Part shown: positions 26-60,236 of the stretch, piece by piece | Layout: the number at the start of each line of letters is the position of its first letter | Position numbering within the stretch: position 1 is the stretch's first letter | DNA from: a virus | Length of the DNA: 64,000 nucleotides | Virus record (IMG/VR): IMGVR_UViG_3300044450_000310 | Strand: one strand, 5' to 3' | The notes under the pieces: generated by a model | What the model was told of the DNA's origin: nothing | Database searches by the model: none | What the model saw: the letters and a program-made list of their open reading frames with translations, nothing else | Position numbers and translations under genes: made by a program

Positions 26-250
26 CTAAGAAACTTCTCCTATTGCAATCGGAGTTGCATTTTCAAGGACAACACACATATTGTTGACCTCTTTTCTAGG
101 TTGCTGATTCAAATAATCCAGCAGAACCGTTCTTAATTCAGGAGTAATCGCATAGTGTGTAGCGGTAACATTCTGCGCACTTTGCTCTGCAAGTTTATCA
201 GAAACAGTTTTCTTTTCAACTTGCTCTTCAGTCGGCTTTTCTACATCCAT
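26..250 (-). CDS. Hypothetical protein, 74 aa
   Basis: ORF track; start preceded by a copy of the ATACAAACACAC motif. Confidence 0.7.
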   Translation of the reverse strand: MDVEKPTEEQVEKKTVSDKLAEQSAQNVTATHYAITPELRTVLLDYLNQQPRKEVNNMCVVLENATPIAIGEVS

Positions 251-258
251 AGTAATAA

Positions 259-270
259 GTGTGTTTGTAT
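259..270 (-). repeat. ATACAAACACAC motif copy 1 (12-mer core)
   Basis: GTGTGTTTGTAT on + strand, 8 nt upstream of ATG at 250. Confidence 0.9.
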
Positions 271-299
271 TCGATTTAGAGACGGAAATGTACTAATCT

Positions 300-716
300 C
301 TAAGCAAATACCCTAGCTGGCGTAAGTGGAGCTTCAAGAATTTCAACACCATCAACCAGTGTTAATTCATTCAGCTCATCCTCGAGTTCACCAGCTCTAT
401 TATCATACTCTACAGGGAATCCTTTTTTCTTTGTATCAATGAGACGAACATTCAAATGCACTTCATCGGTTAATACCGGTGCTGTTATCTCATTTCCATC
501 TGAATCATAAGTTCCAGGAGTTGCTACTAATTGACCTACAAAGTCTATGGCAAAGCCTTTTCCAGCTTGCGCAAAATCATCATCAACAATGAAGCCCTCG
601 ATCGGTCGTAACGACTCGATCAGATCTTCTTTGGAGTTTCCTACTAAATATTTATCAATTATGTTTGGTTGAGTTTTCATGGTTCGAGTCCTTTTGTTAT
701 CATTAATTGCATTCAA
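300..716 (-). CDS. Hypothetical phage protein, probably virion-associated
   Basis: ORF track; ITAPVL..VHLNVRL segment resembles small ORFs that accompany lectin-like tail genes (recollection); start could be 680. Confidence 0.6.
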   Translation of the reverse strand: MNAINDNKRTRTMKTQPNIIDKYLVGNSKEDLIESLRPIEGFIVDDDFAQAGKGFAIDFVGQLVATPGTYDSDGNEITAPVLTDEVHLNVRLIDTKKKGFPVEYDNRAGELEDELNELTLVDGVEILEAPLTPARVFA

Positions 717-748
717 TAGTTAGCACTTCCTGAATGCGTTTTAGGTCA

Positions 749-773
749 AATGGCTCCTTCGGGAGCCGTTTTT
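749..773. terminator. Hairpin ATGGCTCC-TTCG-GGAGCCGT followed by T-tract on + strand
   Basis: 8-bp stem, UUCG loop, directly at the stop of 772..2160. Confidence 0.65.
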
Positions 774-2160: not shown

Positions 2161-2164
2161 CTTT

Positions 2165-6193: not shown

Positions 6194-6739
6194 ATGAAGA
6201 GACTACTTTTCCTACTAATTCTAGTTACTACAAGTATCCAGGCACAAACTTTAGAGCTTTATTCAGGATACTCAACAATTCTAAATCCTACCGTTTTTTC
6301 GGATTCTTACTCTCCATCATTTACTATTGGCGGAAGTGCAACACTACCGATGCTTGGAAGAGTAAACGTTCAGCCATTTGCAGATTACTCTCATTACAAT
6401 GGTGACATTGACGGTTCTGATTTCTCATACATTATTAATGCTGGATTTAATATAAAGGCTGACATCCTAAAGACTCGGTTACGCCCTTATCTCCTATCTG
6501 GAATGTCTATCAGCTATCAATTCAATGATAATGCTCGATTAAATAAGCTTGGATTAAATATTGGATCAGAATATGACAATGTTCAATGGAGCCAGCGACT
6601 TCAGGCAGGATTAGGTATATCATTCGATATCAATGATACCTTCCACATATTTACCCAAGGCACTTATGGGTACACTCCTCAGACCGCAATCAACCTAGAA
6701 GAAGGATTTGTAGTTGCTGGTATTGGTTACTCTCTCTAA
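6194..6739 (+). CDS. Outer-membrane beta-barrel protein (OmpA/Lom/Ail-like moron)
   Basis: Signal peptide MKRLLFLLILVTTSIQA; alternating amphipathic strands; C-terminal GIGYSL resembling a beta-signal; opposite strand to all neighbours. Confidence 0.8.
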   Translation: MKRLLFLLILVTTSIQAQTLELYSGYSTILNPTVFSDSYSPSFTIGGSATLPMLGRVNVQPFADYSHYNGDIDGSDFSYIINAGFNIKADILKTRLRPYLLSGMSISYQFNDNARLNKLGLNIGSEYDNVQWSQRLQAGLGISFDINDTFHIFTQGTYGYTPQTAINLEEGFVVAGIGYSL

Positions 6740-9700
6740 GGAGAATAAGAAGCAAGCTCTGTAATTTGCTTGAGTTCTCCACCAATTACCCAATGTAGTA
6801 ATAGTCTGTAATCGCCTCCCGCATCCTTAGTTGGATCACTCCAAATAAGCACCGCTTTATTTGTAGCATCATTAGGATCTACCACAGCAATACTTTCAAA
6901 GGCTCGGATATTAGAGGCATCAAAAGAAGTTTTAGTGATATGGGCCTTTGGAAGAATTTCATGTGCGTGAAGACTGTAGAAATCCCAATTCGCAAAACCT
7001 GTATATCCATCAGTATATATTTGAACTCTAAACTCATCGAAGGCTGGATCGGTAAAAAATACAACTGGAACAGTGAAATCAATGTATTGCCAAGCACCGG
7101 AAAATGATTGAGAGGTGCAGGCATCCAGTGACTTAATAGTTCCCCAAGTACCACCTGTCTTTCTAACTTGAATAGTTATAGTTAAATCAGATGAACCCGC
7201 AGAATTGGTTTTCATATAGATTCGATCAATTTTTATGTATCGACCAAGCGGTAAATCAGAAGTTAGTAAACCGCTTTGTCCCCATTGTATTATTAAAGGA
7301 CTACCACCATTGGTATTTGGTAACCCATCATCAACAATAGTATCAAATTCGGCTGTTTCTTGAATGGTATAATCATTCAGTACACCGTCTTCATCAGAGA
7401 TTTTAACCGCTTCATAGTCGGTGCCATCTCTATCCTCATCTTTGATAATAATTCTAGGATTATCGCCACCATGAATTTCTAAATCACCACGAACAAGCTT
7501 TTCAGAACTATTAGTTACGCCTTGCGCACCTACTTCTAAGCCACCAATGTAGGCTCTTTTAACTGAAACAACTCCAATTTTATCAAATGCCCAACCTATA
7601 GTACCAGGGTTAGTCATGTTTCCTGAACCATTAATTGTACCATTCCAATTGTCAGACTTCATTTGATTGGCTGAAAACGTAAATCCGTCCATGTCTTGAG
7701 TAAGCTCAGAAGCCACATCACCTACACTAACTTTTGAAGTGATCGATGTAGCATTTGCCACAATAGATGCCTCGGCAGTTACTAATCGACTATCAATACC
7801 ATCTACTTCAGTTTGGGTAGCTCTTAACCCGATATCGGTTGCATTCTGAGTGATGGAAGTCTCAGCCGTAGTTACTCTTCCATCTATGTTGGAAATATTA
7901 GTAACATTCGTTGCAATGTTTGTGGCATTGATTGAAATCGCAGAAGTATTACCAGTAACAGTGCCAGTTAGAGTATCTACCTCCGCTTGCGTAGCTCTTA
8001 GAGTAATGTCAGTTGCATTCTGAATAATCGAAGTCTCAGCAGTTATCAATCTTGTACCTATATCCGATACATCTGAAACTATTAATGCAATGGAAGCACT
8101 ATTTACTGAAATCTCTGCACGATTTACCCGAATCCCTTCCTCACTACCTTGAGTGATGGTATCAATCTCAAAAGCCAGTAATTGAATATTCTCCGCAGTC
8201 TGAGTGATCGATGTTTCCGCAACAGCTAATCTCCCATCGATACTGCTGATATCGCTTACATTGGTGGTAATGCCAGTCGCATTTACAGCAATTGAAGCTG
8301 TATTTGTCGCAACATCCCCTGAGATCGTATCAACTTGAGACTGATTTGCTTTAAGAAGGATATCCGAAGCATTTTGAGCAATCTCGGTAGTATGATTTGC
8401 AACAGTGCCCGAAATAGTATCTACTTCAGATTGATTAGCTTTTAAGGCTATATTTCCAGCATTTAAAACAATGGATGCTTCAGCCGAAGTAACACGACCT
8501 TCTATAGTATCAACTTCAGTCTGATTTGCCTTTAGTGCAATTGCACCAGCATTTACTAAGATATCAGCTTCAGTAGTCGTAACTCTTCCAGTGAGTGTAT
8601 CTACATCAGATTGTGAAGCCTTGAGAGCTATATCAGTCGCATTCTGAATTATGTTAGTTTCAGCAGAGTCTACACGTCCAGTTAAAGTATCGACTTCTGA
8701 CTGCTCTACTTTCGTAGCAATCTGATTAGCCTGTACTATTAATGTTGCTTCATTGGTTGTTACTCGACTTTCAACAAGATCTACATCTGAAGTCAATGCA
8801 CGAAGAGCAATTTGCTGAGAATTAACCTCAATGGATGCTTGGTTTTCTAAAACCCGTTCTTCATTGCCTTGAGTCACAATATCTAACTCTAGCGCCAATA
8901 GAGTGATGGAGCTTTGAGTTTGATTAATTGAAGTCTCTGCTGTAGATACTCTACCTTCCAGGATATCATAATCTGTCTGATTTACTTTTAACAGAATATT
9001 TGAAGCATTCACCGCAATTAAAGCCTCGGCATCGGTAATTCGCTGAGTCTCAATATCTAAATCTGATTGATTCGCTTTCAGTGCAATTTGAGTAGCATTT
9101 GCCGTGATGGAAGTCTCTGCCGTGGTTAATCGAGTATCGAGAATATCGACCGAAGATTGTGTAGCTCTCAGTGCAATTTCACCAGCATTCACTACAATTG
9201 AAGCTTCAGCCGTTGATACTCTACCTTCGATAGTATCTACTTCTGTCTGTGAAGCTTTCAAAGCAATCTGACCAGCATTCACTACAATCGAAGCCTCCGC
9301 AGAGTCTACACGTCCAGTTAAAGTATCAACCTCAGTTTGTGAGGCTTTCAAAGCAATCTGACCAGCGTTTACTAAGATATCAGCCTCGGCGGTAGTTACT
9401 CTAGTGTTTGTAGAGTTCAAACTTAACTGAGAAGCTTTTAGTGCAATATCATTAGAATTAACCGTGATGGATGCTTCCGCAGAGTCTACCCTGCCTTCAA
9501 GGGTATCCAAATCAGTTTGTGAAGCCTTTAATACGATCTGACCAGCTAATTGAATAATCGAAGTTTCATTGGCAGTTATTCGACCTGTCTGAGTATCTAA
9601 ATCTTCTTGTGAGGCTTTTAAAGCAATAGAATTTGCATTCTGCGTGATGGATGTTTCCGCACTGGATACCCGAACTTCAACCGCATCAAATACCGTTTGT

Positions 9701-12700
9701 GAAACTTTGGATGCAATTTCACTAGCTTGAACTACCAAAGTAGATTCATTTACCGTCACCCTTCCTTCAACATTATCTAATTCCGTCTGATCAGCCTTTA
9801 AAACAATTGCTTGAGCATTTACTTCAATACTCGCTCGGTTAGAAGTGATTCTTTCTTCACTTGCCTGTCCGATTGTATCTAACTCAATGGCTAGAATCTG
9901 AATGTTTTCGGCGGTCTGAGTAATCGATGTTTCAGTAGTATCCACCCTTCCTTCTAGGGTATCAAAATCAGTTTGCTCTACTTTGGTTGATATCTGTCCA
10001 GCTTGAACAGTCAACGTTGCTTCGGCAGTAGTCAATCTACCATCAACACCATCAAGTGCTGTTTGATTAGCTTTTAATGCAATATTACCCGCATTTACCA
10101 AAATATCGGCTTCTGCAGTATCCACCCTTCCAGTCAGAGTATCCACACTAGTTTGTGAAGCTTTCAGTGCAATTTGCCCCGCATTAACAATGATATCTGA
10201 TTCCGCAGTATCAACACGACCAGTTAGGGTATCTACCTCGGTCTGATTCGCCTTCAGAGCAATATTCCCTGCATTCACTAGGATTGAAGCCTCGGCTGTA
10301 CTTACCCTTCCAGTTAGAGTATCAACTTCACTTTGATTGGCTTTTAATGCGATATCACCAGCTTGCACCAGTATAGTAGCTTCAGCCGTTGAAACTCTAC
10401 TATCTATAAGATCAACATCAGTCTGATTAGCTTTTAGAAGAATGCCTTGCGCATTAACCTCGATGGATGCAGTGTTTTCAATAACTCGCTCTTCAGTTCC
10501 CTGACTTGTAATATCCAGCTCAAGGGCAAGAAGCGTTATTGATTGAGCATTCTGAGTGATGGAGGTTTCAGCCGTATCCACTCGACCTGTTAGGGTATCA
10601 ACATCAGTCTGACTGGCTTTTAATGCGATATCTCCCGCATTTACTATAATAGAAGCCTCTGCACTGGTTACTCTTCCATCAATGGTATCAACCTGAGTTT
10701 GATTTGCTTTCAGTGCAATATTTGTGGTATTCACTCCAATGGATGAAGTATTGGAAGAAACTGTAGCTGAAAGGGTATCTACTTCAGTTTGATTGACTTT
10801 AAGGGCAATACTGGTCGCATTTTGAGTGATCGATGTTTCAGCATCCGTCACTCTCTGTTCAACTAAATCAAAGACAGATTGTTCAACCTTAGTCGCAATC
10901 TGACCAGCTTGGACAACAATCGAAGCCTCGGCGGTAGTTAATCGAGTATCAATTGCACCTACTTCAGTTGTAGTCGCACGAAGCGCAATATCTGTAGCAT
11001 TCTGAGTAATCGAAGTTTCCGCAGTATTTACTCGACCTTCTAACACATTGAAGGTTGAAGTTTCAACCTTTGTCGCAATCTGACCAGCCTGAACAACCAA
11101 CGTAGCCTCCGCAGTTGTCACCCGACTATCAATCGTATCCACTTCAGTTTGTGAAGCCTTTAAAGCAATCGCAGTTGCATTAACTACGATATCCGCTTCA
11201 GCCGTTGTAACTCTGGCCTCAAGATCATCATACGCTTGAGTCTGAGGAGAAACTTTACCAATCTCAAAGACATCTAAGTCAAAATCATCGCCGGAACCCT
11301 CACCAACATATAAACGAATACCGGTAACAGTACCCGTCCAATTGGTTTCATTCATCACATCAATGCGAGATACATTGAATATATCAGGATCAGCAGGAGT
11401 TGGCATTGCCACCTGATACCAGTTGGTCCCGTCCTTAGTGTATTCAAAAGCTACTCCCCATCCAGTACCCGCAATTCTCTGAAGTCGCACATAGATAATT
11501 GAGTTATCAGAAGTATCAATGGATAGTCCTGTTTTCTCGATATAAGCTCCCGAAGCTGTTGGATCTACATTAAGTGTGTAGGAACCTGTGGTAAGAGTCG
11601 CATTTGTACCAGTAAATCCTTCATCAGTGTTTAAAAACTGAAAACGAACCGCAGGAGTAAGAGCATCCAGTACCTCTGCAATTTGCTGGTTTACTTCTGT
11701 CTTTGTAGCTCGTAAGGTGATATCTGAAGCATTCTGAACAATAGATGTCTCAGTATCAGTAACCCGTTGCTCTACGATATCAAAATCAGTTTGAGTTACC
11801 CGAAGCGCAATTTCATTGGCATTAACCTCAATAGATGCTTCATTTTCAATTACACGCTGTTCATTACCTTGATTTACTAAATCTACCTCTAAAGCAAGAA
11901 GTGTAATCGATTGCTGAGTTTGCTGAATATCGGTTTCAGTTGTGGTTACTCTACCATCAATACTTACCAGGGAAGCTTCTGCGGTATCTAATCTGGACTT
12001 TGCATTTACAATCTCTGTTTCCGCATCCGAAATAGCTGTTTCAGCCGTAGTCAATCGTCCTACATTGCTTGAAATAGTTGCTTCCGCAGTATCAAGTCTT
12101 GTTTTAGCTCCATCTATTTCAGAGTTCGCAGTTATAATATCCGCTTGAGCTGTTGCAATCAGCCCTTGATTCGCAGTGATATCACCTTGCGCATTAGTTA
12201 TATCAGTTTCAGCAGAATCCAATCGGGATTTAGCTGAAACAATTTCAGCCTCCGCTTGAGTAACACGGGTTTTTGTTACTGTAATTTGCTCTTCAGAACT
12301 TTGAGCAATGACATCTAATTCTAGTGCCAATAACTGAGCATTATCAAACGCCGTCTGAATATCAGTTTCAACGGTATCAATTCTTCCTTCAGCCGAAGAA
12401 ATAAGAACAGCCTGTGCATCTATCTGACTTTGAGCAGAAGTAATAAGTGAAGCTTGAGAAGTAATCGTTGTTTCGGCGCTATCAAGCCTACCTTGGGCCG
12501 TTACTAAGTCAGCTTGCGCCTGTACAATATCTGCTTCCGCTTGTACAATTTGAGCCTCCGCATTTGCAATCAAAACTCCTTGATTGGCAATCAGAGCTTC
12601 AGCAGAATCGATATCGATAATTGCTTGATCGATTTGCCCTTGAGCTGTAGCAAGAGTCGTATTAACTAAATCAATAGCAGATTGTTTCGCATCCAGCGCA

Positions 12701-12981
12701 TCATTCAGCCTAGATTCGGCATCAATTACTGCTTGATTAACAGCATCTATCCCTGATTGGAGAGCAACATCACTTGCTTGAAGAGCTGTAATTGAAGTCT
12801 GTATTCCTCCTACACCTAAACCAGTGCCAACTTGTGCTTGTAAATCAGAAAGCTCAATTATGACAGGTTTTTCATCCGCATTATCGGTTGTCATTGCAAA
12901 CAGCCGATCCGAAGGATCAAGAACAATTACCTGTTGAACTTGTTGCTGGTCATTAAGTGGTTTGTACTGGATAGTAGGCAT
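6736..12981 (-). CDS. Long tail fibre with about 30-aa coiled-coil repeats, internal globular domain and C-terminal tip
   Basis: Repeats of ANQSEVDTLTGRVSTAEASILVNAGNIALK (90-bp period, e.g. 10118 vs 10208); position in tail module. Confidence 0.75.
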   Translation of the reverse strand: MPTIQYKPLNDQQQVQQVIVLDPSDRLFAMTTDNADEKPVIIELSDLQAQVGTGLGVGGIQTSITALQASDVALQSGIDAVNQAVIDAESRLNDALDAKQSAIDLVNTTLATAQGQIDQAIIDIDSAEALIANQGVLIANAEAQIVQAEADIVQAQADLVTAQGRLDSAETTITSQASLITSAQSQIDAQAVLISSAEGRIDTVETDIQTAFDNAQLLALELDVIAQSSEEQITVTKTRVTQAEAEIVSAKSRLDSAETDITNAQGDITANQGLIATAQADIITANSEIDGAKTRLDTAEATISSNVGRLTTAETAISDAETEIVNAKSRLDTAEASLVSIDGRVTTTETDIQQTQQSITLLALEVDLVNQGNEQRVIENEASIEVNANEIALRVTQTDFDIVEQRVTDTETSIVQNASDITLRATKTEVNQQIAEVLDALTPAVRFQFLNTDEGFTGTNATLTTGSYTLNVDPTASGAYIEKTGLSIDTSDNSIIYVRLQRIAGTGWGVAFEYTKDGTNWYQVAMPTPADPDIFNVSRIDVMNETNWTGTVTGIRLYVGEGSGDDFDLDVFEIGKVSPQTQAYDDLEARVTTAEADIVVNATAIALKASQTEVDTIDSRVTTAEATLVVQAGQIATKVETSTFNVLEGRVNTAETSITQNATDIALRATTTEVGAIDTRLTTAEASIVVQAGQIATKVEQSVFDLVEQRVTDAETSITQNATSIALKVNQTEVDTLSATVSSNTSSIGVNTTNIALKANQTQVDTIDGRVTSAEASIIVNAGDIALKASQTDVDTLTGRVDTAETSITQNAQSITLLALELDITSQGTEERVIENTASIEVNAQGILLKANQTDVDLIDSRVSTAEATILVQAGDIALKANQSEVDTLTGRVSTAEASILVNAGNIALKANQTEVDTLTGRVDTAESDIIVNAGQIALKASQTSVDTLTGRVDTAEADILVNAGNIALKANQTALDGVDGRLTTAEATLTVQAGQISTKVEQTDFDTLEGRVDTTETSITQTAENIQILAIELDTIGQASEERITSNRASIEVNAQAIVLKADQTELDNVEGRVTVNESTLVVQASEIASKVSQTVFDAVEVRVSSAETSITQNANSIALKASQEDLDTQTGRITANETSIIQLAGQIVLKASQTDLDTLEGRVDSAEASITVNSNDIALKASQLSLNSTNTRVTTAEADILVNAGQIALKASQTEVDTLTGRVDSAEASIVVNAGQIALKASQTEVDTIEGRVSTAEASIVVNAGEIALRATQSSVDILDTRLTTAETSITANATQIALKANQSDLDIETQRITDAEALIAVNASNILLKVNQTDYDILEGRVSTAETSINQTQSSITLLALELDIVTQGNEERVLENQASIEVNSQQIALRALTSDVDLVESRVTTNEATLIVQANQIATKVEQSEVDTLTGRVDSAETNIIQNATDIALKASQSDVDTLTGRVTTTEADILVNAGAIALKANQTEVDTIEGRVTSAEASIVLNAGNIALKANQSEVDTISGTVANHTTEIAQNASDILLKANQSQVDTISGDVATNTASIAVNATGITTNVSDISSIDGRLAVAETSITQTAENIQLLAFEIDTITQGSEEGIRVNRAEISVNSASIALIVSDVSDIGTRLITAETSIIQNATDITLRATQAEVDTLTGTVTGNTSAISINATNIATNVTNISNIDGRVTTAETSITQNATDIGLRATQTEVDGIDSRLVTAEASIVANATSITSKVSVGDVASELTQDMDGFTFSANQMKSDNWNGTINGSGNMTNPGTIGWAFDKIGVVSVKRAYIGGLEVGAQGVTNSSEKLVRGDLEIHGGDNPRIIIKDEDRDGTDYEAVKISDEDGVLNDYTIQETAEFDTIVDDGLPNTNGGSPLIIQWGQSGLLTSDLPLGRYIKIDRIYMKTNSAGSSDLTITIQVRKTGGTWGTIKSLDACTSQSFSGAWQYIDFTVPVVFFTDPAFDEFRVQIYTDGYTGFANWDFYSLHAHEILPKAHITKTSFDASNIRAFESIAVVDPNDATNKAVLIWSDPTKDAGGDYRLLLHWVIGGELKQITELASYSP

Positions 12982-18008: not shown

Positions 18009-18641
18009 TTACTCCTTAGTTGGTTTTTGACCGTCCTGATTTAAATCCAGTGCCCAACCGAACATATCAAATAGAAGTTGCTCGATAGCGATCAGGAGCT
18101 TGTCAAATAATTCTGCTTTCTCTTTATCTGATATCTTTTCTCCATCTTCACTGGTTTTAGATTTAGCTTCACGGTATTCCTTTATGATATCTGTCAATGC
18201 AGTCGCAAACTTCTGAGTAATACGACCAGTAGTAGCAAGCCAAGTAACAAACATGGTTAATGCCACACATACTATGATGGTGCCCCACTCGGCAAATTCA
18301 AATCCTGAAAATAGTCCAGTTAATCCAGTTAATAATTCCATTTCTGTTATTCCTGCAATTAAATTGATAACACTTATCACACCTGTTAGATCAAGTGAAG
18401 TAATGGTGGTAATTACCGCACCTACACCACCGATAATGGTCTTACCGGTCTTGTTCTTACCACTCAGGGTTCGCCCTAGCGGTTTATCATTCCAAAAGCT
18501 CTTTTTGATCTCAACAGGAGGCAGATCAGGCACGTCTACTTCTTTCAGCTTTACATCACGTACTTTGCCGTTAAACAAGCTCTCAGGAGCGCCAATTCTT
18601 CTTCTTTGTAATTCGCCTTCACCCATCTTTGTTTTCCTCAC
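18009..18641 (-). CDS. Membrane protein of the lysis cassette
   Basis: Two to three hydrophobic segments; adjacent to holin-like and DUF5675 genes. Confidence 0.55.
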   Translation of the reverse strand: MRKTKMGEGELQRRRIGAPESLFNGKVRDVKLKEVDVPDLPPVEIKKSFWNDKPLGRTLSGKNKTGKTIIGGVGAVITTITSLDLTGVISVINLIAGITEMELLTGLTGLFSGFEFAEWGTIIVCVALTMFVTWLATTGRITQKFATALTDIIKEYREAKSKTSEDGEKISDKEKAELFDKLLIAIEQLLFDMFGWALDLNQDGQKPTKE

Positions 18642-19964: not shown

Positions 19965-19977
19965 TGTGTGTTTGTAT
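19965..19977 (-). repeat. ATACAAACACACA motif copy 2
   Basis: Exact; 5 nt upstream of ATG 19959. Confidence 0.9.
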
Positions 19978-22424: not shown

Positions 22425-22437
22425 TGTGTGTTTGTAT
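22425..22437 (-). repeat. ATACAAACACACA motif copy 3
   Basis: Exact; 9 nt upstream of ATG 22415. Confidence 0.9.
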
Positions 22438-22893: not shown

Positions 22894-22906
22894 TGTGTGT
22901 TTGTAT
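22894..22906 (-). repeat. ATACAAACACACA motif copy 4
   Basis: Exact; overlaps the portal stop codon. Confidence 0.9.
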
Positions 22907-41505: not shown

Positions 41506-41514
41506 CAGAGCCTC

Positions 41515-42023: not shown

Positions 42024-42036
42024 TGTGTGTTTGTAT
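42024..42036 (-). repeat. ATACAAACACACA motif copy 5
   Basis: Exact; 14 nt after the tRNA 3' end, 5 nt before ATG 42018. Confidence 0.9.
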
Positions 42037-42050
42037 GATTAATCAACTTG

Positions 42051-42122
<72 letters not shown>

Positions 42123-45933: not shown

Positions 45934-45946
45934 TGTGTGTTTGTAT
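45934..45946 (-). repeat. ATACAAACACACA motif copy 6
   Basis: Exact; 13 nt before ATG 45920. Confidence 0.9.
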
Positions 45947-49315: not shown

Positions 49316-49653
49316 TGAATCCTCCTGTTATGATCAATTAAAATTGCGAACACTATCACTGGTTTGTCTCCGAAGTGCTCATGGGTAATGGTTCTTCTGA
49401 TATATCCGCAATAAGGAAATACCAATCTTCGTGAAGTATCATCTTTCTTTGGATACCCTAGACAGATAATCAGGTTCTTGTACTTTCTTCCTTCCAGTCT
49501 CTTTTGCCATCGCTCATTGTCCAGGCGATACTCATAATGCTTTTCTCCACTCTGCATTTGGTAGAAATACTCGGCTTTCACATGAAGAACTAAGTCTTTG
49601 AGTTCTTCTACAGGATCTAGTGAGAAACTGAATTTCATACAGATATCTCCCAC
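49312..49653 (-). CDS. ASCH/PUA-like protein
   Basis: L.L.VK..YF..M.SGEK..EYR....W.KRL pattern. Confidence 0.65.
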   Translation of the reverse strand: MGDICMKFSFSLDPVEELKDLVLHVKAEYFYQMQSGEKHYEYRLDNERWQKRLEGRKYKNLIICLGYPKKDDTSRRLVFPYCGYIRRTITHEHFGDKPVIVFAILIDHNRRIQ

Positions 49654-50382: not shown

Positions 50383-51932
50383 TAAGCTACCTCCGCAATT
50401 ATTTCATTCATGTATAGTTTATTTGTCAAAGCTTCCATCATTGCTTGCACAACCGCAGGAGGTACAGAGTTTCCGATGAACTTCTTCTGATCCGCTTGAT
50501 TGCCAGCTAAGTAGTAATCTTCTCCGAATCCCTGAATCTTCTTGAGTTCAGGTACACGTAGCATTCGAGTTGTGATATCAGTAATACCATACTCCTGACA
50601 AAATTCTTTGATCTTCACCATCATTGGAGAATCTTCAATATCGATTTCAGGAACTTCACCATGAGAAGCGCTTACCAGTGAAGGAGCACTTTTATCCATT
50701 GAAGCAATCAGTGTGAAGCATGGAGAATCAATAGAACCACCTTTAGAATTGTACTGAGGATTCATGATGAAATGATTACTCTTTGCGCTCACTAAATTGT
50801 GCTTCGGAACTGAAGTAATTGTATTAGCAGGAGCATCAATTGAAGAGTGCTGTCCACCATTTGAATACTGCATATCTAGGAAAGAACACTGAGCCAACAT
50901 AAACCCGTCTTTGGTGCGAATTGTACCTGAGGGCTTATTGATTGATTCTACATTATCTCCATTGCCGTAATACTTGGTACTGAATGCGCCTTTCACTTTA
51001 ACTACACTTTGATTCGCTGTAGTTGTGATGCTGTGAGCTGGTTGATTTACATCATACACTTTGCCCCAAGGTCTGCCGGAGAAATGCTTTTGAATGAATA
51101 CTCCATCGCCTTTGGCAACATACTTATTCAATCCCGCCAAGATTCGTTTTAATGTAGCCTCAACTAATGGCTTTTTGCGAGTGAAAATACTCTGTCCTTC
51201 ATCCTGAAAGTCCAAGCATTCACGAACTGCATTCCAAGGCTTTAACTGGTCGAACAATCCATCATTTTGAGGATGTTCAGCATGAGTTGGAGAAGGCCAT
51301 ACAATCGGGTTATCTCCTTTAGAAAAGATTCCAAACAATCTACGGCGCTTGGTATGAGCACCGAAATCCGCACTATTCAATACATTTGCATCGTAAGAAT
51401 ATCCGTTGCGCTTAATCTTATTCGTCCATTTGATATAATCAGCACCTTTCTTCATCGATACTGGTCGACCGTTTTCATCTAATGGCCCCCACGCCATAAA
51501 CTCTTCTACATTCTCGAAGTAAAAGAAGTCAGGATCGATAGCCTCAATGTAATTGTGCATATACTCAGGAAGAGAACGTGAGTCTGCATCTCTAGGCATT
51601 CCACCTTTTGCTTTTGAATAATTAGTGCATTTCATGGAAGCCCATAAAAGAACGATCGCTTCAGGATACTTCTCCTTCCAGTAGCGTGTAATCTTAGCAG
51701 TTTGAGCAACTACTTCTTCACTTCGGATATCTTCATTGAAGTGAATTGCTTGTTTGTGATTGGTCTTATGAGATTCGATTGCCAAAGGATCGTGATTCAC
51801 GCAAGCAATCAATTTAACTGGTCTATATTTCCCTAAAATTCGTGCTCTGTCGGCACCAGTGGATACCCCACCAGCACCGCAGAACAGATCGATAAAAAGG
51901 ATTAGCGGTAATTTCTGTGTGTTTGTATTCAT
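50382..51932 (-). CDS. DNA cytosine-5 methyltransferase
   Basis: IDLFCGAGG, catalytic Cys in WASMKCTNYS, FENVEE, RRRLF, IGNSVPP. Confidence 0.92.
   Translation of the reverse strand: MNTNTQKLPLILFIDLFCGAGGVSTGADRARILGKYRPVKLIACVNHDPLAIESHKTNHKQAIHFNEDIRSEEVVAQTAKITRYWKEKYPEAIVLLWASMKCTNYSKAKGGMPRDADSRSLPEYMHNYIEAIDPDFFYFENVEEFMAWGPLDENGRPVSMKKGADYIKWTNKIKRNGYSYDANVLNSADFGAHTKRRRLFGIFSKGDNPIVWPSPTHAEHPQNDGLFDQLKPWNAVRECLDFQDEGQSIFTRKKPLVEATLKRILAGLNKYVAKGDGVFIQKHFSGRPWGKVYDVNQPAHSITTTANQSVVKVKGAFSTKYYGNGDNVESINKPSGTIRTKDGFMLAQCSFLDMQYSNGGQHSSIDAPANTITSVPKHNLVSAKSNHFIMNPQYNSKGGSIDSPCFTLIASMDKSAPSLVSASHGEVPEIDIEDSPMMVKIKEFCQEYGITDITTRMLRVPELKKIQGFGEDYYLAGNQADQKKFIGNSVPPAVVQAMMEALTNKLYMNEIIAEVA
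51916..51928 (-). repeat. ATACAAACACACA motif copy 7
   Basis: Exact; lies just inside the annotated start (codons 2-6, MNTNTQ). Confidence 0.85.
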
Positions 51933-52006
51933 TTCTGTTCTGTTTGTTAGTATCAGGTTCTTACATCAATATAATTTAAAATTTTATTTGATGCAAGTAT
52001 TTATTT

Positions 52007-52459: not shown

Positions 52460-53246
52460 TGGAACCCTCCTTTTGCTTATACACATCCCCATCAACATGA
52501 GTAGTATTATTGCCCCAATGATTTTTGTACATCTCATTTAAATCATCATTGGTTATGGTTATTTCATCAATACTGAAACCACGCTTTGCGAACTCTTCAG
52601 CTACCCTATTGAAGAAATTATCAGGCTTTTCCTCATTGAAGAGTGTTTGCACTTTTATTCCCCGATGATCCAGCAGAACCAATGTCTTGAAGGTGGAATA
52701 CACTTCGGTATCTGACCACTTCTCGATGTTCTTGCCTGTTTTAGCAGGAAGAGCTTTCTGATTCTTATTTTTTTCCCGCCACCACTGGACTTTGATTGAC
52801 TCCAGGTTCTTGTTCATACACTCAGCAAGAGCACTGATATTGTTACCATTGCGCTTGAATCGCCCATTGATAACATTGGTTGTGAACTCGAAAAGGACAA
52901 AACCAACAGGAGCATCAGCAGGGATGTATGGATTGTTTTCAATAAGGTGGAACATCAAGTCTTCGAAGTGTGCTCGTATCTGAGCTGTCCTATTCTTTTC
53001 AGCCTGTTCAGGAGTTTCTTCAGCTTTTGGATGGTATTCAGGAAGATTCCCCTTGGCTCCAATAAATTCATAGAATTGGAAGAGAGTTTTCACGATATCC
53101 CCATCAGGCTTAACCGTGAATCCTTCAGATTTAGCTTTTAAAATTTCATCCCGTGTATTACGATCATTGTATCGTTGGTACTTGGTCGAGTCGGTCGAGT
53201 TGTTCAGAGAAATCCCCGACACTGGTATGTTTGATAGTGCTTGCAT
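52452..53246 (-). CDS. Hypothetical protein (replication module)
   Basis: ORF track; motif-led start; follows replisome organiser. Confidence 0.7.
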   Translation of the reverse strand: MQALSNIPVSGISLNNSTDSTKYQRYNDRNTRDEILKAKSEGFTVKPDGDIVKTLFQFYEFIGAKGNLPEYHPKAEETPEQAEKNRTAQIRAHFEDLMFHLIENNPYIPADAPVGFVLFEFTTNVINGRFKRNGNNISALAECMNKNLESIKVQWWREKNKNQKALPAKTGKNIEKWSDTEVYSTFKTLVLLDHRGIKVQTLFNEEKPDNFFNRVAEEFAKRGFSIDEITITNDDLNEMYKNHWGNNTTHVDGDVYKQKEGSNG

Positions 53247-54081
53247 TGTTCTGTGTGTTTGTATTCTTTTTATTCTTGAAATCGCTGAACCAGCTCTTTT
53301 GCTTGGCTATGTAGAACTTCCATCCTGTATGATGGATTAAGGTGCCATTAGGTGCCCACTGATAACTATTCACATGATTCCAAAGATGTTCAGCAAATTC
53401 TTTGGAATAGCGGTTAATTAAACACTCTTCTATGAACGTTGATTGATTCGGGTAGTAGTCAGGGTTAATAACAGGAACATCATCAGCTTTTCGAGTAAGG
53501 ATAGGAGAACCTAAACCTATATCAGCTCCAATGATAGCAACCTCCGTGAGCGCCGGAGCACTTCCATTGTTTAGTTCTTGATCATTCTTATCATTATTGT
53601 TTGTTCCGCTTTGAATCTCGTCAACGTCTTGCACTAAGTTGCTTGGCGGTGCAAACAAAGGTGAATCCTGAATCGCATCCGTGTCGTTTTGCGACTCGTC
53701 AACGTGTTTTTTATCCTGATAAACCTCATAATTACAGATGGTTAACCGTGTCGTAGTCTTTAGGTTCTCCGTGACTATCATATCGTCAGACTTGAGCAGA
53801 TCAAAGAACCTTCGAACTTTATCTTTGCCCCACTGCCAACGGTTTCCCCACTCCTTCATACTTCGGACAGATTGACCACGATCACAAGCTACCAGCCCAC
53901 CTTTAATGCGAACTTTCTTAGGCTTATGATTTACTTCTAGGATAAGATCAATCCACGCTTCAAATTCAGTGAACTCTCTATCAGAAGGATACAACCAGTG
54001 ATTCTTTGTGCTTCTGTACAGCTTAATCCAGCCTTGGATGATATTTTCATCAAAGTTAGACTTAATCATCACACTCACCAT
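53164..54081 (-). CDS. Phage replisome organiser / replication initiator
   Basis: GWIKLYRS..HWLY..EAWIDLIL..RGQ..RW.W..VRRF..TRLTICNYE N-terminal family pattern. Confidence 0.8.
   Translation of the reverse strand: MVSVMIKSNFDENIIQGWIKLYRSTKNHWLYPSDREFTEFEAWIDLILEVNHKPKKVRIKGGLVACDRGQSVRSMKEWGNRWQWGKDKVRRFFDLLKSDDMIVTENLKTTTRLTICNYEVYQDKKHVDESQNDTDAIQDSPLFAPPSNLVQDVDEIQSGTNNNDKNDQELNNGSAPALTEVAIIGADIGLGSPILTRKADDVPVINPDYYPNQSTFIEECLINRYSKEFAEHLWNHVNSYQWAPNGTLIHHTGWKFYIAKQKSWFSDFKNKKNTNTQNNASTIKHTSVGDFSEQLDRLDQVPTIQ
53252..53264 (-). repeat. ATACAAACACACA motif copy 8
   Basis: Exact; inside the 3' end of the upstream CDS, 5 nt before ATG 53246. Confidence 0.9.
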
Positions 54082-54762: not shown

Positions 54763-54774
54763 GTGTGTTTGTAT
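54762..54774 (-). repeat. ATACAAACACACA motif copy 9
   Basis: Exact; last A is the A of ATG 54762. Confidence 0.9.
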
Positions 54775-55086: not shown

Positions 55087-55576
55087 GGTATAGCTCCTTT
55101 AAAATGTGTGTTTGTACATATTCGCATGGTTCATAACTCCCATCTAAGTAGGAATTAACGGTATCCATCACTTCATCCCCATTCCAGCAGACTTCTATTG
55201 CATATCCTTCCAGCCACATATCCACCAGGAATTGCTTTTGATCTTCATCGGGATAGTTGCTCCGCTTGTACTTCGGAATACCTTTTACAATATCAGTCAA
55301 CTTTTCTGACTTCAGCTCAATAGCTAATCCACCATACCCGTGAGCCATCTTGAAAATGAGCATATCACTTACTCCTTTTCTCACTCCCATTTGTCTGAGC
55401 TTATTTCCTTCAGGAGAAAACATCCTCCCATTCTTACCCTTCCTCACTTTCGTTTTACGCTCATTAGCTACATGAGTAAAGTTGAGCTTTTTGATAGTCA
55501 GGAAATTAGCTGTGAACTTCGTGAGCTGTTCTTCATTCATTCCTACATGAAACTTTTTTACCGGAGAATTACTCAT
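55070..55576 (-). CDS. VRR-NUC family nuclease / resolvase-like
   Basis: HVANE...GVRKGVSDMLIF..GLAIELK...Q..FL PD-(D/E)XK pattern. Confidence 0.85.
   Translation of the reverse strand: MSNSPVKKFHVGMNEEQLTKFTANFLTIKKLNFTHVANERKTKVRKGKNGRMFSPEGNKLRQMGVRKGVSDMLIFKMAHGYGGLAIELKSEKLTDIVKGIPKYKRSNYPDEDQKQFLVDMWLEGYAIEVCWNGDEVMDTVNSYLDGSYEPCEYVQTHILKELYHERAS
55105..55117 (-). repeat. Motif copy 10 (one mismatch, GTACAAACACACA)
   Basis: Inside the VRR-NUC 3' end, 18 nt before ATG 55086. Confidence 0.75.
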
Positions 55577-55715
55577 GCCAATCCTCCATAATTTCTAAGT
55601 AGTTTTTATGAGCTCTCCACGTCTTATACTTTCTCCAAGCCCATCGAATGACATATCCCACCCAAATTGGAAGTAACAAACTGAATGGCAACAGCATTAA
55701 AACAATCATTGACAT
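55569..55715 (-). CDS. Small single-TM protein, 48 aa (not in ORF track)
   Basis: Hand-translated MSMIVLMLLPFSLLLPIWVGYVIRWAWRKYKTWRAHKNYLEIMEDWHE; fills the gap, overlaps the next start. Confidence 0.55.
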   Translation of the reverse strand: MSMIVLMLLPFSLLLPIWVGYVIRWAWRKYKTWRAHKNYLEIMEDWHE

Positions 55716-55729: not shown

Positions 55730-56167
55730 TCATGATATTACCTCCACTTTGAAATGTTCATCGAGATACCAAGTGATTGTTGCGATAGATCTATTCATCA
55801 CAGAACCAATCTCTTTTAAAGTGTATCCTTTATCCTTCAGATTTTTGGCTACAGCTTTTCTCACTCTCTTCACATCATCACCCGTGATTCGGGAAGTCAC
55901 AGTTTCAGGTGCCATTGCTAATCGACCACAAGCACGATTGAAATTTGCTTTAAGATTAGCCCTTCTTCTTCTGTTACTTAATAATTTTTCCTTATCAGGA
56001 TTAAACTCTTTAGCATTCTCAAAACTCATGTAATGTTTAGCCAGAGATACCGCTTGATTTGCGCTTAACTCATTTCTCTCACCCGAAGGAATAATCACTA
56101 CTTCAGGTGCTCTTTTTGCCGTTAATCCTTCTGTCAGCTCAGTTAGTATTTCTTGATCCAGTCGCAT
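55730..56167 (-). CDS. HTH DNA-binding protein
   Basis: C-terminal GYTLKEIGSVMNRSIATI. Confidence 0.7.
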   Translation of the reverse strand: MRLDQEILTELTEGLTAKRAPEVVIIPSGERNELSANQAVSLAKHYMSFENAKEFNPDKEKLLSNRRRRANLKANFNRACGRLAMAPETVTSRITGDDVKRVRKAVAKNLKDKGYTLKEIGSVMNRSIATITWYLDEHFKVEVIS

Positions 56168-56669: not shown

Positions 56670-56682
56670 TGTGTGTTTGTAT
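56670..56682 (-). repeat. ATACAAACACACA motif copy 11
   Basis: Exact; 12 nt before ATG 56657. Confidence 0.9.
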
Positions 56683-56747
56683 TGATTTAGGAAAGAGGAG
56701 TCAGCCTTTCACAACTGCTCCACACTGATACTAACTATATATCTATG

Positions 56748-57278: not shown

Positions 57279-57283
57279 ATATA

Positions 57284-57296
57284 TGTGTGTTTGTAT
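57284..57296 (-). repeat. ATACAAACACACA motif copy 12
   Basis: Exact; 5 nt before ATG 57278. Confidence 0.9.
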
Positions 57297-57477
57297 TAAT
57301 TGTTGGGAAACAGGAAGAAAGGCTACCAACCTAACTTCCAGCCATTCTCAAATCTGCCAGTATTCGCCTACTGACAATCTTCTGATACTAACCTAAACAT
57401 TGAAATAGAAGCCTGCCCATCACGACAGGCTTCACGGGGTTTTAGGGGTACAATAAATCAATCGGGAAAAACACCAT

Positions 57478-58212
57478 TCAGCGCATTGACGCTATCTTCT
57501 TGGTATCTTTCGCAAAATTCGCCTTGTCAGAACACATCCACTCCAGGTATGGACGACCTGACCGAGCTAAGTCTTCTAACTTCTCTCCTTTGTGCTTACC
57601 AATAGTGATGTACACTTTGCCACCAAGTATTTCACCTTTCTTGAAGATTCCAGCACGATCAACAACCGAAGATTCAATCTCAGAAAGATGCTTTCTAACA
57701 TCTACTCTCCGATTCATCACCTTTAGGATTTCAATAGTAGCAGTAACATCAGCCAAGGCATCGTGAGCATCTTCGAGTTCTTTACCGGTAAGCAGATTGT
57801 ACACACTGGAAAGAGTTCTAGGATAAACTTGATTGAAGAGTTTGAACATATCCATCATCTTCAACTCAGAAAGATCTAGGGAAGTGAATCCACATTCGTT
57901 AAACTCTCTCTCTAAAATCAAATCATCGAACTGGAAATTATTATATCCACCTAGATACTCGACTTTGGCAAGCTGAACAGCTATCTCTTTTGAAAGCTCA
58001 CAAAACTTTGGAGCATCCTTGACATCTTCATCAGAGATACCATGTACTTCTTTTGCCTCTTCAAGAATCGGTATTTCAGGATTAATCAAACTCTTCTTTT
58101 GGTATTCCACCTTCCAAGTTTTGAGGCAGATAACCACAATGGCTATCTGCACAATTTTATCCTTGTTTGCATCGGGGCCAGTCGTTTCCAAGTCATAGAA
58201 AAATGCTTTCAT
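57478..58212 (-). CDS. DEDDh 3'-5' exonuclease (DnaQ/ExoX-like)
   Basis: YDLETTG, GYN..FD, HDALAD; C-terminal IGKHKG..YLEW; start 58212 has SD GGAGGT. Confidence 0.88.
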   Translation of the reverse strand: MKAFFYDLETTGPDANKDKIVQIAIVVICLKTWKVEYQKKSLINPEIPILEEAKEVHGISDEDVKDAPKFCELSKEIAVQLAKVEYLGGYNNFQFDDLILEREFNECGFTSLDLSELKMMDMFKLFNQVYPRTLSSVYNLLTGKELEDAHDALADVTATIEILKVMNRRVDVRKHLSEIESSVVDRAGIFKKGEILGGKVYITIGKHKGEKLEDLARSGRPYLEWMCSDKANFAKDTKKIASMR

Positions 58213-58402
58213 ACTAACCTCCGAATGGTAATTCTTGTTCTTTAGCATCCGCTTGCCAGTTACCCATATCGATAGCTGGTTTACCGTCTGCAGTCACTAG
58301 CTGACCATTCTTTAAGTCCACATCGATTTCAGGTTGCTCTTCGAAATTGTCTTGAACAATGTGCGCATCCTGAACCTGATTGGCTTTTTCTTGATCCTGT
58401 TG

Positions 58403-59347
58403 CTATTTAACCAAGAACTGAGAAAGATTACTCACTAGATAAGAAAGAGCCGAGTACGGCAAATCCATCAAGTCTGTAGTAACCTCTTTCATGTACTTTT
58501 TGGAAGCTACTTTAGCAAACTCAACTTTCTTAGTTGTCCACTCCGCACCGTAGGCTTTCTCACCAAGAGCATTCACATCCTCAAGAGCCTTACCCCATAA
58601 TTCGGATTGTGATTGATCGGTGATTCCGTGATCTGTTACCACACCATCAGAATCAGCTTCAATAGTTTTAGTGTAATCACCATTGATGTTTCCTTGAAGT
58701 TCTTCCAAGTCTTGAGTAAAGATATCTGAAGCTCCCGTTGCAGTAAGAATACCATCAACATGAGCACGTTTTTTACCCATCTTCAGAACCGTATTGAAGG
58801 TATCGGCGATATCAGGATTTTCAACCCTTTCTCCGTTTCCTACCACTCGAACTACTTTCCAAATATTATCAATCTTTTTGCGCTTGTATTTACCAGTACC
58901 AAACTTTTTGACTAGGTAAGCATCACGATCCTGCGGATTATCTTGAGGTATATTCCAATACCCTTTATCAATATCACCAACTACTTCTTCTTTGTATTCT
59001 TTTCGCCAGCGATACTTTGATTCCATGGTCGAACAAATACCCACACCTTGACCAATTATATCTCGCGTATTAATATGAGTGAGCGTACAAATAATCTCAT
59101 ACTCTCGGTGCCCATTGGGAAGATCTTCTTTTTTAATGGTGTAGCTTGGTGAAAGACGAAACAGTACAGAAAGTTTTTCTGCTCCCGCCTTCAGCAAGGT
59201 TGGTTTATTAGTTCCAGGGATTTTGCCGAAATGCTCACCCGCCTTCATAACCGATTTCATTGCTTTTTGGATCACCTGTGCCTGTGCATTTAAACTATCC
59301 ACAGATGCAGGCTCACCAATAGCAATAAGTTGCTTCGAATCAGACAT
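58403..59347 (-). CDS. Putative single-strand annealing recombinase; frame continues past TAG to 58214
   Basis: GKIPGT.KPTLLKAGAEKL..F.L and NTVLKM..KRA.VD..L.ATG.SDIFTQDLEE; lies between Gp157-like and exonuclease genes. Confidence 0.7.
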   Translation of the reverse strand: MSDSKQLIAIGEPASVDSLNAQAQVIQKAMKSVMKAGEHFGKIPGTNKPTLLKAGAEKLSVLFRLSPSYTIKKEDLPNGHREYEIICTLTHINTRDIIGQGVGICSTMESKYRWRKEYKEEVVGDIDKGYWNIPQDNPQDRDAYLVKKFGTGKYKRKKIDNIWKVVRVVGNGERVENPDIADTFNTVLKMGKKRAHVDGILTATGASDIFTQDLEELQGNINGDYTKTIEADSDGVVTDHGITDQSQSELWGKALEDVNALGEKAYGAEWTTKKVEFAKVASKKYMKEVTTDLMDLPYSALSYLVSNLSQFLVK

Positions 59348-59348
59348 C

Positions 59349-60236
59349 TTAGAATCCTCGAAGTCCGTCCTTCACAGTTACATCAATACCCGTTAAAGGC
59401 AGATGCTCTAATCGGTGCTTTAATTCAGCAAAGAACTTATCCTGTTCTTCATCTTCCATATCTTCAGGATCAAGCCCGTCAAACTCTTCAATAAGCTCAG
59501 TTCTGATTTCTCTGCGCTCAAGCACTCGTGCTCGTACAAACTTGTTTACCTCACCCCCTGTTGCAAAAGAGTAATTCGGTAATACTTCTGACAATTCTGA
59601 GGACAGGTTCAAACAAGCTTGAATCATTGGAACAGGATCAAAAGCGATTGGCTCTCCCGTTTCCTCATCGGATGCTTGACCAAGCACTGAGCATAAGGTT
59701 GCTCTTAACTTGCGTAAATGTTCGCCACCAATATTGTAATGAACACTAGCAAGTCCATGCTCTGAAAGAGTATCGTATGCTTGAACTTCATCGGTGATGG
59801 TGCCAGTAATACTCTCAGTTACAATTATATTCTTACCGTCAACTTTCACTTTTCCTTCAGGAAGAGCCTTGACGATTAGAATTACACGATCTTTTAGTCT
59901 CTCAAGATCGTTTTTTCGAGCATTTTCAGTATCTCTAAATGAGTCAGATTGACTCTTGTACATATCCTTGACAGCCTTGGAAGCCACCACTTGCTCATTT
60001 ATCTTGTCTTTCACCCAACGCATTGACTGAACCTTCCCTTCAAGAGAATCTTCAGTTTCAATTAATCGTGCCTGAAGCTCATTGAATAATTCTTCAAAGT
60101 TATCAGGCTCTTCAACTAAAAGCTTTTGCATTTCAAACTTGATAGCGCCAGCATCTTTCAGCATATCGAAAGAGGTCTTTTTTCTTTCAACTACTTCCAC
60201 AGTCTTAGTGTTTTCTTCAATTGTAGTCTGTTGCAT
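59349..60236 (-). CDS. Siphovirus Gp157-like / Gam-like coiled-coil protein
   Basis: N-terminal coiled coil LEGKVQSMRWV...RKNDLERLKDRV; recombination module position. Confidence 0.6.
   Translation of the reverse strand: MQQTTIEENTKTVEVVERKKTSFDMLKDAGAIKFEMQKLLVEEPDNFEELFNELQARLIETEDSLEGKVQSMRWVKDKINEQVVASKAVKDMYKSQSDSFRDTENARKNDLERLKDRVILIVKALPEGKVKVDGKNIIVTESITGTITDEVQAYDTLSEHGLASVHYNIGGEHLRKLRATLCSVLGQASDEETGEPIAFDPVPMIQACLNLSSELSEVLPNYSFATGGEVNKFVRARVLERREIRTELIEEFDGLDPEDMEDEEQDKFFAELKHRLEHLPLTGIDVTVKDGLRGF

Follow-up and report, generated by a model that had tools for sequence, protein, structure and literature searches.

The window, a 64,000-nucleotide (nt) stretch of the IMG/VR virus record IMGVR_UViG_3300044450_000310 analysed here over its whole length, holds a temperate podophage of ~64 kb integrated in a Balneolaceae genome, and this report concerns a short motif, ATACAAACACAC, that is repeated at the translation starts of the phage. 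Nearly all of the phage genes lie on the − strand, and for genes on that strand the number quoted for a start is the first base of the ATG. The identified genes are a P22-like portal (22906-24852, −), a polyvalent protein of 4999 aa (24845-39844, −) that sits between terminase and portal, the large terminase (42259-44319), an SU10-type capsid protein, a DnaD-like replication protein, a C5-methylase, an exonuclease, a Tad2-like protein, and an integrase (ATG 63920, +) that runs off the window. Past the integrase come the host genes thrS-infC-rpmI-rplT-pheST, and the ThrS encoded there matches that of a Balneolaceae genome at 93% identity. A phage tRNA-Met(CAU) with initiator-like features (42050-42122, −) is flanked by a terminator and a motif copy. 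Among cultured phages, those of Bacteroides come nearest, at a portal identity of 31%. In a check for strain variation, the remaining contigs of the window phage were all 100% identical.

A repeated motif beside start codons

We found 13 exact copies of the 12-mer ATACAAACACAC and one copy with a single mismatch, all on the − strand and in gene sense, and when up to two mismatches were allowed there were 22 matches against 5.5 expected. The information-rich part of the motif extends over ~16 nt (AATACAAACACACATA), and the gene-sense consensus reads AAT.AATACAAACACACATA. Scores from a position weight matrix (PWM) were bimodal: the copies scored above 20 and almost nothing fell between 10 and 20. 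The motif is free of G and of AUG, GUG and UUG, and it contains three ACA triplets. Its spacing to the start was 0-19 nt with a mode of 6 (12 copies), the exceptions being the copies at 32427, 51928, and 60291, and ATG was the start codon in 12 of 13 motif-led genes.

Copy 1, the "master" copy (60280-60291), has the top PWM score, lies 43 nt ahead of ATG 60236, and stands opposite a predicted antisense RNA that is described below. The modal spacing of 6 nt is seen at 57285-57296 (ATG 57278, the Tad2-like gene, at the end of a 199-nt gap), 53253-53264 (ATG 53246, within the 3' end of the DnaD-like open reading frame, ORF), 42025-42036 (ATG 42018, 13 nt past the tRNA-Met), and 19966-19977 (ATG 19959, after the terminator behind the capsid gene). 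Other spacings are 8 nt at 259-270 (ATG 250), 10 nt at 22426-22437 (ATG 22415, a scaffold-like gene, after a strong terminator), 13 nt at 56671-56682 (ATG 56657), and 14 nt at 45935-45946 (ATG 45920, the first gene of the packaging operon, again after a terminator), while the copy at 54763-54774 abuts ATG 54762 with no spacer at all. The copy at 22895-22906 overlaps the portal stop codon and lies 12 nt ahead of TTG 22882. A variant with a G (GTAC..., 55106-55117), within the upstream ORF, precedes ATG 55086 by 19 nt with AAGGAG in between. The C5-methylase start is unusual in that the exact copy (51917-51928) comes directly past its ATG 51932 and a degenerate copy, ATACTAACAAAC (51942-51953), lies 9 nt ahead of it; a candidate host-type promoter (TTG-N20-TATATTGA, 51996-51966, −) just upstream would start transcription ahead of this motif-type leader, so that the motif would lie in the 5' untranslated region of the methylase mRNA. 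The copy at 32416-32427 is inside the ORF of the polyvalent protein, has no start codon nearby, and is not kept in the related phage L001. All of these copies are on the − strand; a one-mismatch variant on the + strand, ATACTAACACAC (63898-63909), lies 10 nt ahead of the integrase ATG. A preliminary description of this DNA had listed nine motif-led starts (250, 19959, 22415, 42018, 45920, 53246, 54762, 56657, and 57278) as lacking a GGAG-type site, and this holds for all nine, but the list was incomplete, as the copies at 22906, 32427, 51928, and 60291 and the variants at 51953 and 63898-63909 were left out.

In five gaps of 90-240 nt the motif was always 6-14 nt from the ATG, and so it goes with start codons and not with intergenic space. 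About half of the copies follow terminator-like hairpins or the tRNA by 12-25 nt. The initiation regions of motif-led genes have the least structure of all in the phage, with an unpaired probability of 0.77 compared with 0.56-0.60 elsewhere (p<0.001).

Several features beside these copies deserve mention. The tRNA-Met combines an A1xC72 mismatch, A11:U24, and the G30-C40 and G31-C39 pairs with an A29-U41 pair, and its CCA is not encoded; it lies 5 nt past the T-run of the terminase terminator and has no promoter of its own. With ATG 53246 as the start, which the motif copy upstream supports, 83 nt are shared between the DnaD-like ORF and the one after it (53164-53246, −); public gene calls use later starts (213 or 256 aa). 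A candidate host-type promoter (TTG-N19-21-TAnnTTGR, 22647-22617, −) stands at the start of the 230-nt gap ahead of the scaffold-like gene and is followed by two terminator-like hairpins, an arrangement that may be an attenuator. The polyvalent protein carries N6/N4 methylase, RadC, SNF2/Sbno-type helicase, ADP-ribosyltransferase, and LPD38 domains, and its counterparts in relatives are 3355 and 5267 aa long.

The motif belongs to the phage. As a host element it was rejected, since five genomes of the host family Balneolaceae hold 0-1 copies per 3.3-3.8 Mb, and among the matches listed from IMG/VR there were just single, chance-level ones. Megablast searches of IMG/VR and INPHARED gave no close relatives, and 401 genomes of the host class gave one more portal relative, a distant one. 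Two related phages nevertheless carry motifs of their own. In L001, whose portal is 55% identical, AAT(A)TCAAACACACA occurs both at the portal stop and ahead of the scaffold-like gene, and in the prophage G102 (portal 42% identical) 11 gene-sense copies of (A)AAGAGAAACAC(A) lie 0-27 nt ahead of ATGs, some of them at slots orthologous to those of the window phage. This house motif is uniform within each phage (ATACAAACACAC in the window phage, ATCAAACACACA in L001, and GAGAAACAC in G102) and occupies orthologous slots, and an AAACAC core is common to the phage-specific variants. The slot at the portal stop, which holds the 22906 copy in the window, is filled in L001, G102, and a further phage, L099, by their own variants. 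Portal relatives at 30-40% identity had no house motif near the portal, and gut Bacteroides relatives carry TATCTTTG host promoters instead. Some of these gut relatives (L122, L126, L141, L158, and others in IMG/VR; portal 32%) repeat a near-identical host promoter word, TTATCTTTGCA, ~30 nt ahead of several gene starts and ~450-1050 nt past the portal, which is a different solution to the "house signal" in one phage family; a relative in the L122 group of gut Bacteroides phages also has AAGGAGGG at an internal junction.

When orthologous starts were compared across four phages, the slot was taken by the house motif, by a canonical Shine-Dalgarno (SD) site (GGAGGAGAT in L099, TAAGGAGAA in L001, and AAAGGAGAAACAC in G102), or by a generic A/C-rich leader. 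Because one and the same slot accepts any of the three, a role of the motif at the RNA level and independent of SD pairing is plausible. In L099 the SD follows the terminator T-run after only 4 nt, which means that the gene must be reached by read-through, and this spacing, together with the promoterless tRNA behind the terminase terminator, favours a leader function over a promoter function.

Shine-Dalgarno sites and translation in the host

Strong SD sites (GGAGG or AGGAG) precede 10 of 55 starts in the phage, against 0.93 expected (p=5.5e-8), and 9 of the 10 are 5-7 nt from the ATG. The GGAG-type sites reported earlier ahead of 18005, 41505, 49315, 50382, 52459, 55576, and 58212 were all confirmed at 5-7 nt, to which 55733 and the non-canonical 21349 have to be added. 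On the − strand these are TAAGGAG at 18012-18016 (6 nt ahead of ATG 18005, with the upstream gene 3 nt away; kept in G102), AGGAGG at 41512-41516 (ATG 41505, in a 9-nt gap), AGGAGG at 49322-49326 (ATG 49315), GGAGGT at 50390-50394 (ATG 50382), AAGGAGG at 52467-52471 (ATG 52459), and GGAGG at 55583-55587 (ATG 55576), the last four at overlapping junctions, followed by GGAGGT at 55741-55745 (ATG 55733) and GGAGGT at 58218-58222 (ATG 58212, the exonuclease). ATG 55086 does carry both signals, as first described: the G-variant of the motif and AAGGAG.

The preliminary description had proposed that SD-led and motif-led starts form two complementary classes. Among 54-55 starts, 13 were motif-led, 10 had a strong SD (one start having both), and 31 of 54 had neither; since most genes have neither signal, motif and SD are not a true two-way split. 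A strong SD was found at 1 of 12 motif-led starts and at 9 of 43 others (Fisher p=0.43), and at a moderate SD threshold the counts were 1 of 12 and 17 of 43 (Fisher p=0.08), so that the significant anti-correlation between SD and motif on which the proposal depended narrowly fails to appear. A rank test of anti-SD pairing energy against the motif gave p=0.0004, but this is an artefact of the G-free motif filling the −1 to −20 window. Among free-standing genes, an SD was present in 1 of 13 with the motif and in 1 of 10 without it, and about half of the stand-alone starts had no motif.

The split between motif and SD reflects operon position: SD sites belong to coupled junctions, the motif to starts that stand alone. 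Motif-led genes lay a median of 74 nt from the upstream gene and SD-led genes a median of −1 nt (p=0.03), and in G102 the corresponding medians were 90 nt and −7 nt (p=0.017). All SD-led genes were at tight or overlapping junctions, with the SD inside the end of the preceding ORF.

Translation in the host gives these numbers their context. Bacteroidota mRNAs lack SD sites although the 16S rRNA keeps CCUCC (PMC6847099, PMC7797042), and SD-less initiation has been described for Bacteroidia (PMC6847099, PMC7797042, PMC9976891). The 16S rRNA of the host of the window phage ends in ...GGAUCACCUCCUUUC, which means that the anti-SD is kept, and its rRNA promoters are of the Bacteroidota type (TTTG..TAnnTTTG). 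Any GGAG, GAGG, or AGGA was found upstream of 10 of 301 host ORFs (3%) and a strong SD upstream of 2 of 301, the ribosomal protein genes had none, and the initiation regions were, like the motif, G-poor and A-rich. With strong SD sites at just 2 of 301 ORFs, SD-less initiation is the norm in this host. The share of strong SD sites in the phage, 18%, differs from that of the host (Fisher p=2e-7), and it is the SD-led genes, not the motif-led ones, that are the odd class here.

The idea that the motif provides an SD-independent route of initiation is therefore upheld in part. The motif sits in the ribosome-binding slot, its regions are the least structured, and a duplex of the motif with 16S rRNA was weaker (−6.6 kcal/mol) than those of shuffled sequences (−8.9±1.7), so that pairing with 16S rRNA was rejected. 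The route is not special, though, as SD-less initiation is the default for the Balneolaceae host and for most phage genes.

A predicted antisense cassette opposite motif copy 1

On the + strand opposite copy 1 we found a compact set of elements that together predict an antisense RNA. A predicted host-type promoter consists of TTG, 20 nt, and TATTTTGG (60221-60251, with the box at 60244-60251). The predicted RNA of ~70 nt (60257-60326) is made up of a 5' hairpin, a single-stranded anti-motif, a terminator hairpin, and a U-run. The anti-motif seed, TATGTGTGTTTGTATT (60277-60292), is complementary to all motif copies and lies ~25 nt past the promoter box, and 3 nt past it comes the terminator (60296-60326), a hairpin of 10 bp with 6 GC (60296-60321) followed by TTTTT. 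This hairpin is the top terminator match in the 19.5-kb early region. Its T-run exists on the + strand only, where there is no upstream gene to terminate; the sense strand has an A-run ahead of the hairpin and no U-run behind it.

The promoter pattern TTG-N19-21-TAnnTT[TG][GA] has 5 matches on the + strand and 4 on the − strand of the window, and the match at 60221 lies ~70 nt upstream of the terminator. Other matches are the likely promoter of the repressor gene (TTG..TATATTGA, 61020-61051, +), the likely early lytic promoter (TTG..TACATTGG, 61072-61102, −), which stands ahead of a cro-like gene at 61041 and is without the motif, and the methylase promoter (51996, −); because these three sit at sensible places, we regard the pattern as informative. 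The probability of a chance match within ~80 nt upstream of the terminator is ~0.006, and ~0.01 in G102.

The same cassette is present on the antisense strand of G102, where TTTG-N19-TATTTTTA is followed by that phage's own anti-motif and again by the top terminator match. The cassette is conserved in these two phages, whose early and lysogeny proteins are non-homologous. Both predicted RNAs are ~70 nt long and fold as a 5' hairpin, an open seed, and a terminator (z about −5 to −6), with the anti-motif single-stranded in both and with 12-21 nt of perfect complementarity to the motif copies. The copy opposite the cassette has the consensus flanks in addition to its top score, and the flanks of the other copies converge on this copy, 60291.

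The head of the early operon shows two further features. G102 has three motif copies there at 55-nt spacing (L094 3826-3944), where the window phage has one. A small hairpin beside copy 1 (60258-60276 in the window; L094 3826-3856 in G102), with the core CCGAYGAG.GG in gene sense, is kept in both phages despite unrelated flanking protein genes; it may be the 5' hairpin of the predicted antisense RNA or, alternatively, may serve on the sense strand to sequester a short upstream AUG (60264).

The reading that we tentatively prefer, while allowing that it could well be wrong, is that the motif is a shared mRNA leader and the target set of one antisense RNA. It is quite conceivable from the cassette and its targets that a single ~70-nt prophage RNA governs a dispersed regulon of 13-14 genes through G-free leaders at their translation starts. 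Such a regulon might include anti-defence, replication, methylase, packaging, and head genes and the integrase, with the RNA and its targets co-evolving. We infer that the RNA is produced, that it pairs in trans, and in which direction it acts. Base pairing best explains the letter-perfect identity of the copies, and the bimodal PWM scores point to pairing or to highly specific recognition and not to a loose preference in composition. Antisense pairing would account together for why the copies are exactly alike, why each phage has its own variant, why the host lacks the motif, and why it stands next to start codons.

In the mechanism we propose, the motif would act in mRNA, and not as a promoter or operator, as a G-free, unstructured 5' leader cassette that fills the ribosome-binding slot in an SD-poor Balneolaceae host. 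It would mark stand-alone lytic genes that are uncoupled from the upstream ORF and often lie just past a hairpin or tRNA, with the SD-led genes as a separate set, internal at overlapping junctions, and with most genes using neither signal. The seed of the RNA would pair over 12-21 nt at 0-30 nt upstream of the AUG, within the ribosome footprint, and so block initiation; with one mismatch it could pair with the integrase leader as well. The motif-led genes would then be shut off together, either to reinforce silencing in the lysogen or to time their expression. With its host-type promoter ~1 kb from the repressor gene, the RNA could be made in the lysogen, and after induction a convergent lytic transcript could overrun and titrate it, as for P22 sar or P1 c4. 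The earlier suggestion that one gene class is controlled separately thus gains a candidate mechanism in the predicted RNA, although the classes it assumed are not complementary.

A number of observations weigh against this proposal. Both predicted −7 boxes are one base off the host consensus. On the sense strand the hairpins fold just as well, and only the U-run and the promoter point to the antisense strand. An RNA made opposite one motif copy holds the anti-motif automatically, so complementarity does not prove action in trans, and the seed common to the window phage and G102 is just 9 nt. The copies at 32427, within an ORF, and at 51928, after the AUG, are off ribosome-binding sites. The cassette occurs in two full genomes only, and a BLAST search of 216 Balneolaceae genomes for homologues gave weak partial matches only. 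The predicted RNA had no match in Rfam at the gathering threshold or at E<=10, and no second anti-motif locus with a promoter, for instance beside the integrase, was found in the window. Full-length duplex energies of the RNA with initiation regions were not discriminating, owing to a high background, and were not used.

Alternative readings and known systems

The alternative that survives best, though we still consider it unlikely, is a plain SD-independent initiation cassette that acts without an antisense RNA, an open A/C-rich landing pad of the kind that the start-associated sequences (SAS) of mycobacteriophages may represent. It could be read by the host ribosome, possibly through bS1, or by another factor, and its uniformity could come from copy-and-paste recombination or from selection. 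The exchange of motif, SD, and A/C-rich leader at orthologous slots in four phages is in keeping with this, as is the low structure of motif-led regions. At 6-nt spacing, moreover, the AAA of the motif falls at −14 to −12 and an A at −6, positions at which A is a positive determinant in Flavobacterium (Baez et al., PMC6847099), and the motif resembles the Kozak-like initiation regions of Bacteroidota (Baez et al. 2019, PMC6847099; Jha et al. 2021, PMC7797042) in being G-poor, A-rich, and unstructured. Initiation regions of the host are G-poor and A-rich as well, and the motif holds no AUG, GUG, or UUG. Those host regions are degenerate, however, whereas the motif is an exact repeated word missing from the host genome; a preference in composition does not need 13 identical 12-16-mers or bimodal PWM scores. 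The motif is missing from about half of the free-standing starts and is followed by an SD at 55086; three copies (32427, 51928, and 60291) do not sit directly at a start codon, and, for a positioning signal, 0-19 nt is a loose spacing. This alternative also leaves the antisense promoter-terminator cassette unexplained.

A phage-specific promoter or start-site region, giving rise to very short or leaderless mRNAs through host RNA polymerase and an unrecognised phage factor, appears improbable. In its favour, the 12-25 nt that separate about half of the copies from a hairpin or the tRNA are too tight for a host −33/−7 promoter, the copies are identical, strand-specific, and phage-specific like T7-type promoters, to which they bear a loose likeness (AATAC...ATA), TAnnTTTG is depleted on the gene strand (12 matches vs ~27 expected), and three tandem copies head the early operon of G102. 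A host sigma-A promoter (TTTG at −33 and TAnnTTTG at −7) was rejected as the identity of the motif, since the motif does not fit that consensus and no box recurs consistently ahead of the copies; a sigma-70 consensus scan gave fewer matches than in shuffled sequences and was uninformative. Pfam and PHROG scans of the ORFs revealed no phage RNA polymerase or sigma factor. A scan for the polymerase signature DxDxD gave chance matches only; the sole DFDxD match is a DFDLD at residue 566 of the repetitive fibre protein (2081 aa), in an inserted globular domain. The fibre-like proteins (6736-12981, −, in the window; 66132-70385 in G102) are encoded as 90-bp coding tandem repeats, which are the source of the commonest 10-12-mers of G102 and are unrelated to the motif. 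Further against a promoter, the motif core is common to the window phage and G102 in spite of their unrelated early proteins, the ATG abuts the motif at 54774 and precedes it at 51928, and a candidate host-type promoter stands at 51996 ahead of a motif-type leader. The promoterless tRNA behind the terminase terminator means that terminators must be read through, and L099 has this layout of terminator, short spacer, and ATG without any repeated motif, the leader there being generic or holding an SD.

We likewise give little credence to a protein site at the RNA level, either a translational operator like that of RegA or a processing site, for example for an ACA-specific endoribonuclease, that yields mRNAs with short leaders. 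A site near the AUG that is strand-specific and exact in sequence and holds three ACA triplets would suit such a protein, and the hairpins that the motif follows could stabilise the 3' ends of upstream mRNAs. Yet we found no candidate for an RNA-binding protein or nuclease, the early proteins being orphans, and no early protein is common to the window phage and G102.

A stoperator-like DNA site, at which a prophage repressor bound to asymmetric sites blocks the elongating polymerase as in mycobacteriophage L5, is very improbable: many asymmetric 12-16-mers aligned with transcription in short intergenic or stop/start-overlapping positions of a temperate phage do recall the 13-mers of L5 and Cluster A (PMC9283540), and no motif precedes the lysogeny genes, but the motif is absent from the early lytic promoter (no PWM match in 60640-61130), hugs the ATG even in long gaps, and shares its core and positions between phages with dissimilar repressor candidates, and the C-terminal half of the candidate repressor of the window phage (61068/61107-61559), which has no sequence match to solved structures in the PDB, resembles long helices and not a second DNA-binding domain in a poor single-sequence model (pLDDT 44).

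Among described phenomena, the SAS of Cluster K mycobacteriophages come closest; they are 13-bp repeats of which 80 of 93 are found at ATG starts (Pope et al. 2011, PMC3203893), and their function was still untested in 2025 (PMC12699233). Like the motif (12-16 nt), SAS are short asymmetric repeats present in ~10-20 copies of one orientation near start codons, with a preference for ATG (12 of 13 in the window phage), no occurrence in the host genome, and an occasional overlap with the upstream stop; about half of the copies in either system are preceded by an inverted repeat, the extended SAS (ESAS) in Cluster K and the hairpins in the window phage. SAS contain an AGGAG core that can pair with 16S rRNA, while the G-free motif cannot pair, and they are limited to the non-structural arm, while the motif stands ahead of packaging and head genes as well. 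Nor has an antisense RNA been proposed for SAS, and the host of the window phage is an SD-poor member of the Bacteroidota.

Antisense RNAs are familiar from temperate phages and include P22 sar, which is antisense to the ribosome-binding site of ant, the c4 RNA of P1 and P7 (Rfam RF01695), and the P4 CI RNA. The predicted RNA resembles the sar and c4 type in its length of ~70 nt, in having its own promoter and intrinsic terminator, in being directed against lytic genes near the immunity region, and in an exposed segment complementary to ribosome-binding regions. It has no sequence or Rfam similarity to sar or c4, and where sar, c4, and CI RNAs each have a single mRNA as target, with one or two sites in it, the predicted RNA would face 13-14 identical sites over 60 kb.

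Little is known on how phages of the mostly SD-less Bacteroidota mark and regulate their translation starts. For annotation, the motif already helps, as it leads us to prefer the starts at 22415, 53246, and 57278 to longer ORF calls. The strong, well-spaced SD sites at coupled junctions in a host that avoids them raise the question of when Bacteroidota ribosomes free their anti-SD, with termination-reinitiation and bS21-poor ribosomes as possibilities. An exact, phage-private word with a matching predicted small RNA offers a testable mechanism for start-associated repeats that have long been unexplained. If the proposal is true, one RNA would be a compact means of silencing or timing many scattered prophage genes, and the pair of leader and RNA would be a ready-made orthogonal expression switch for Bacteroidota.

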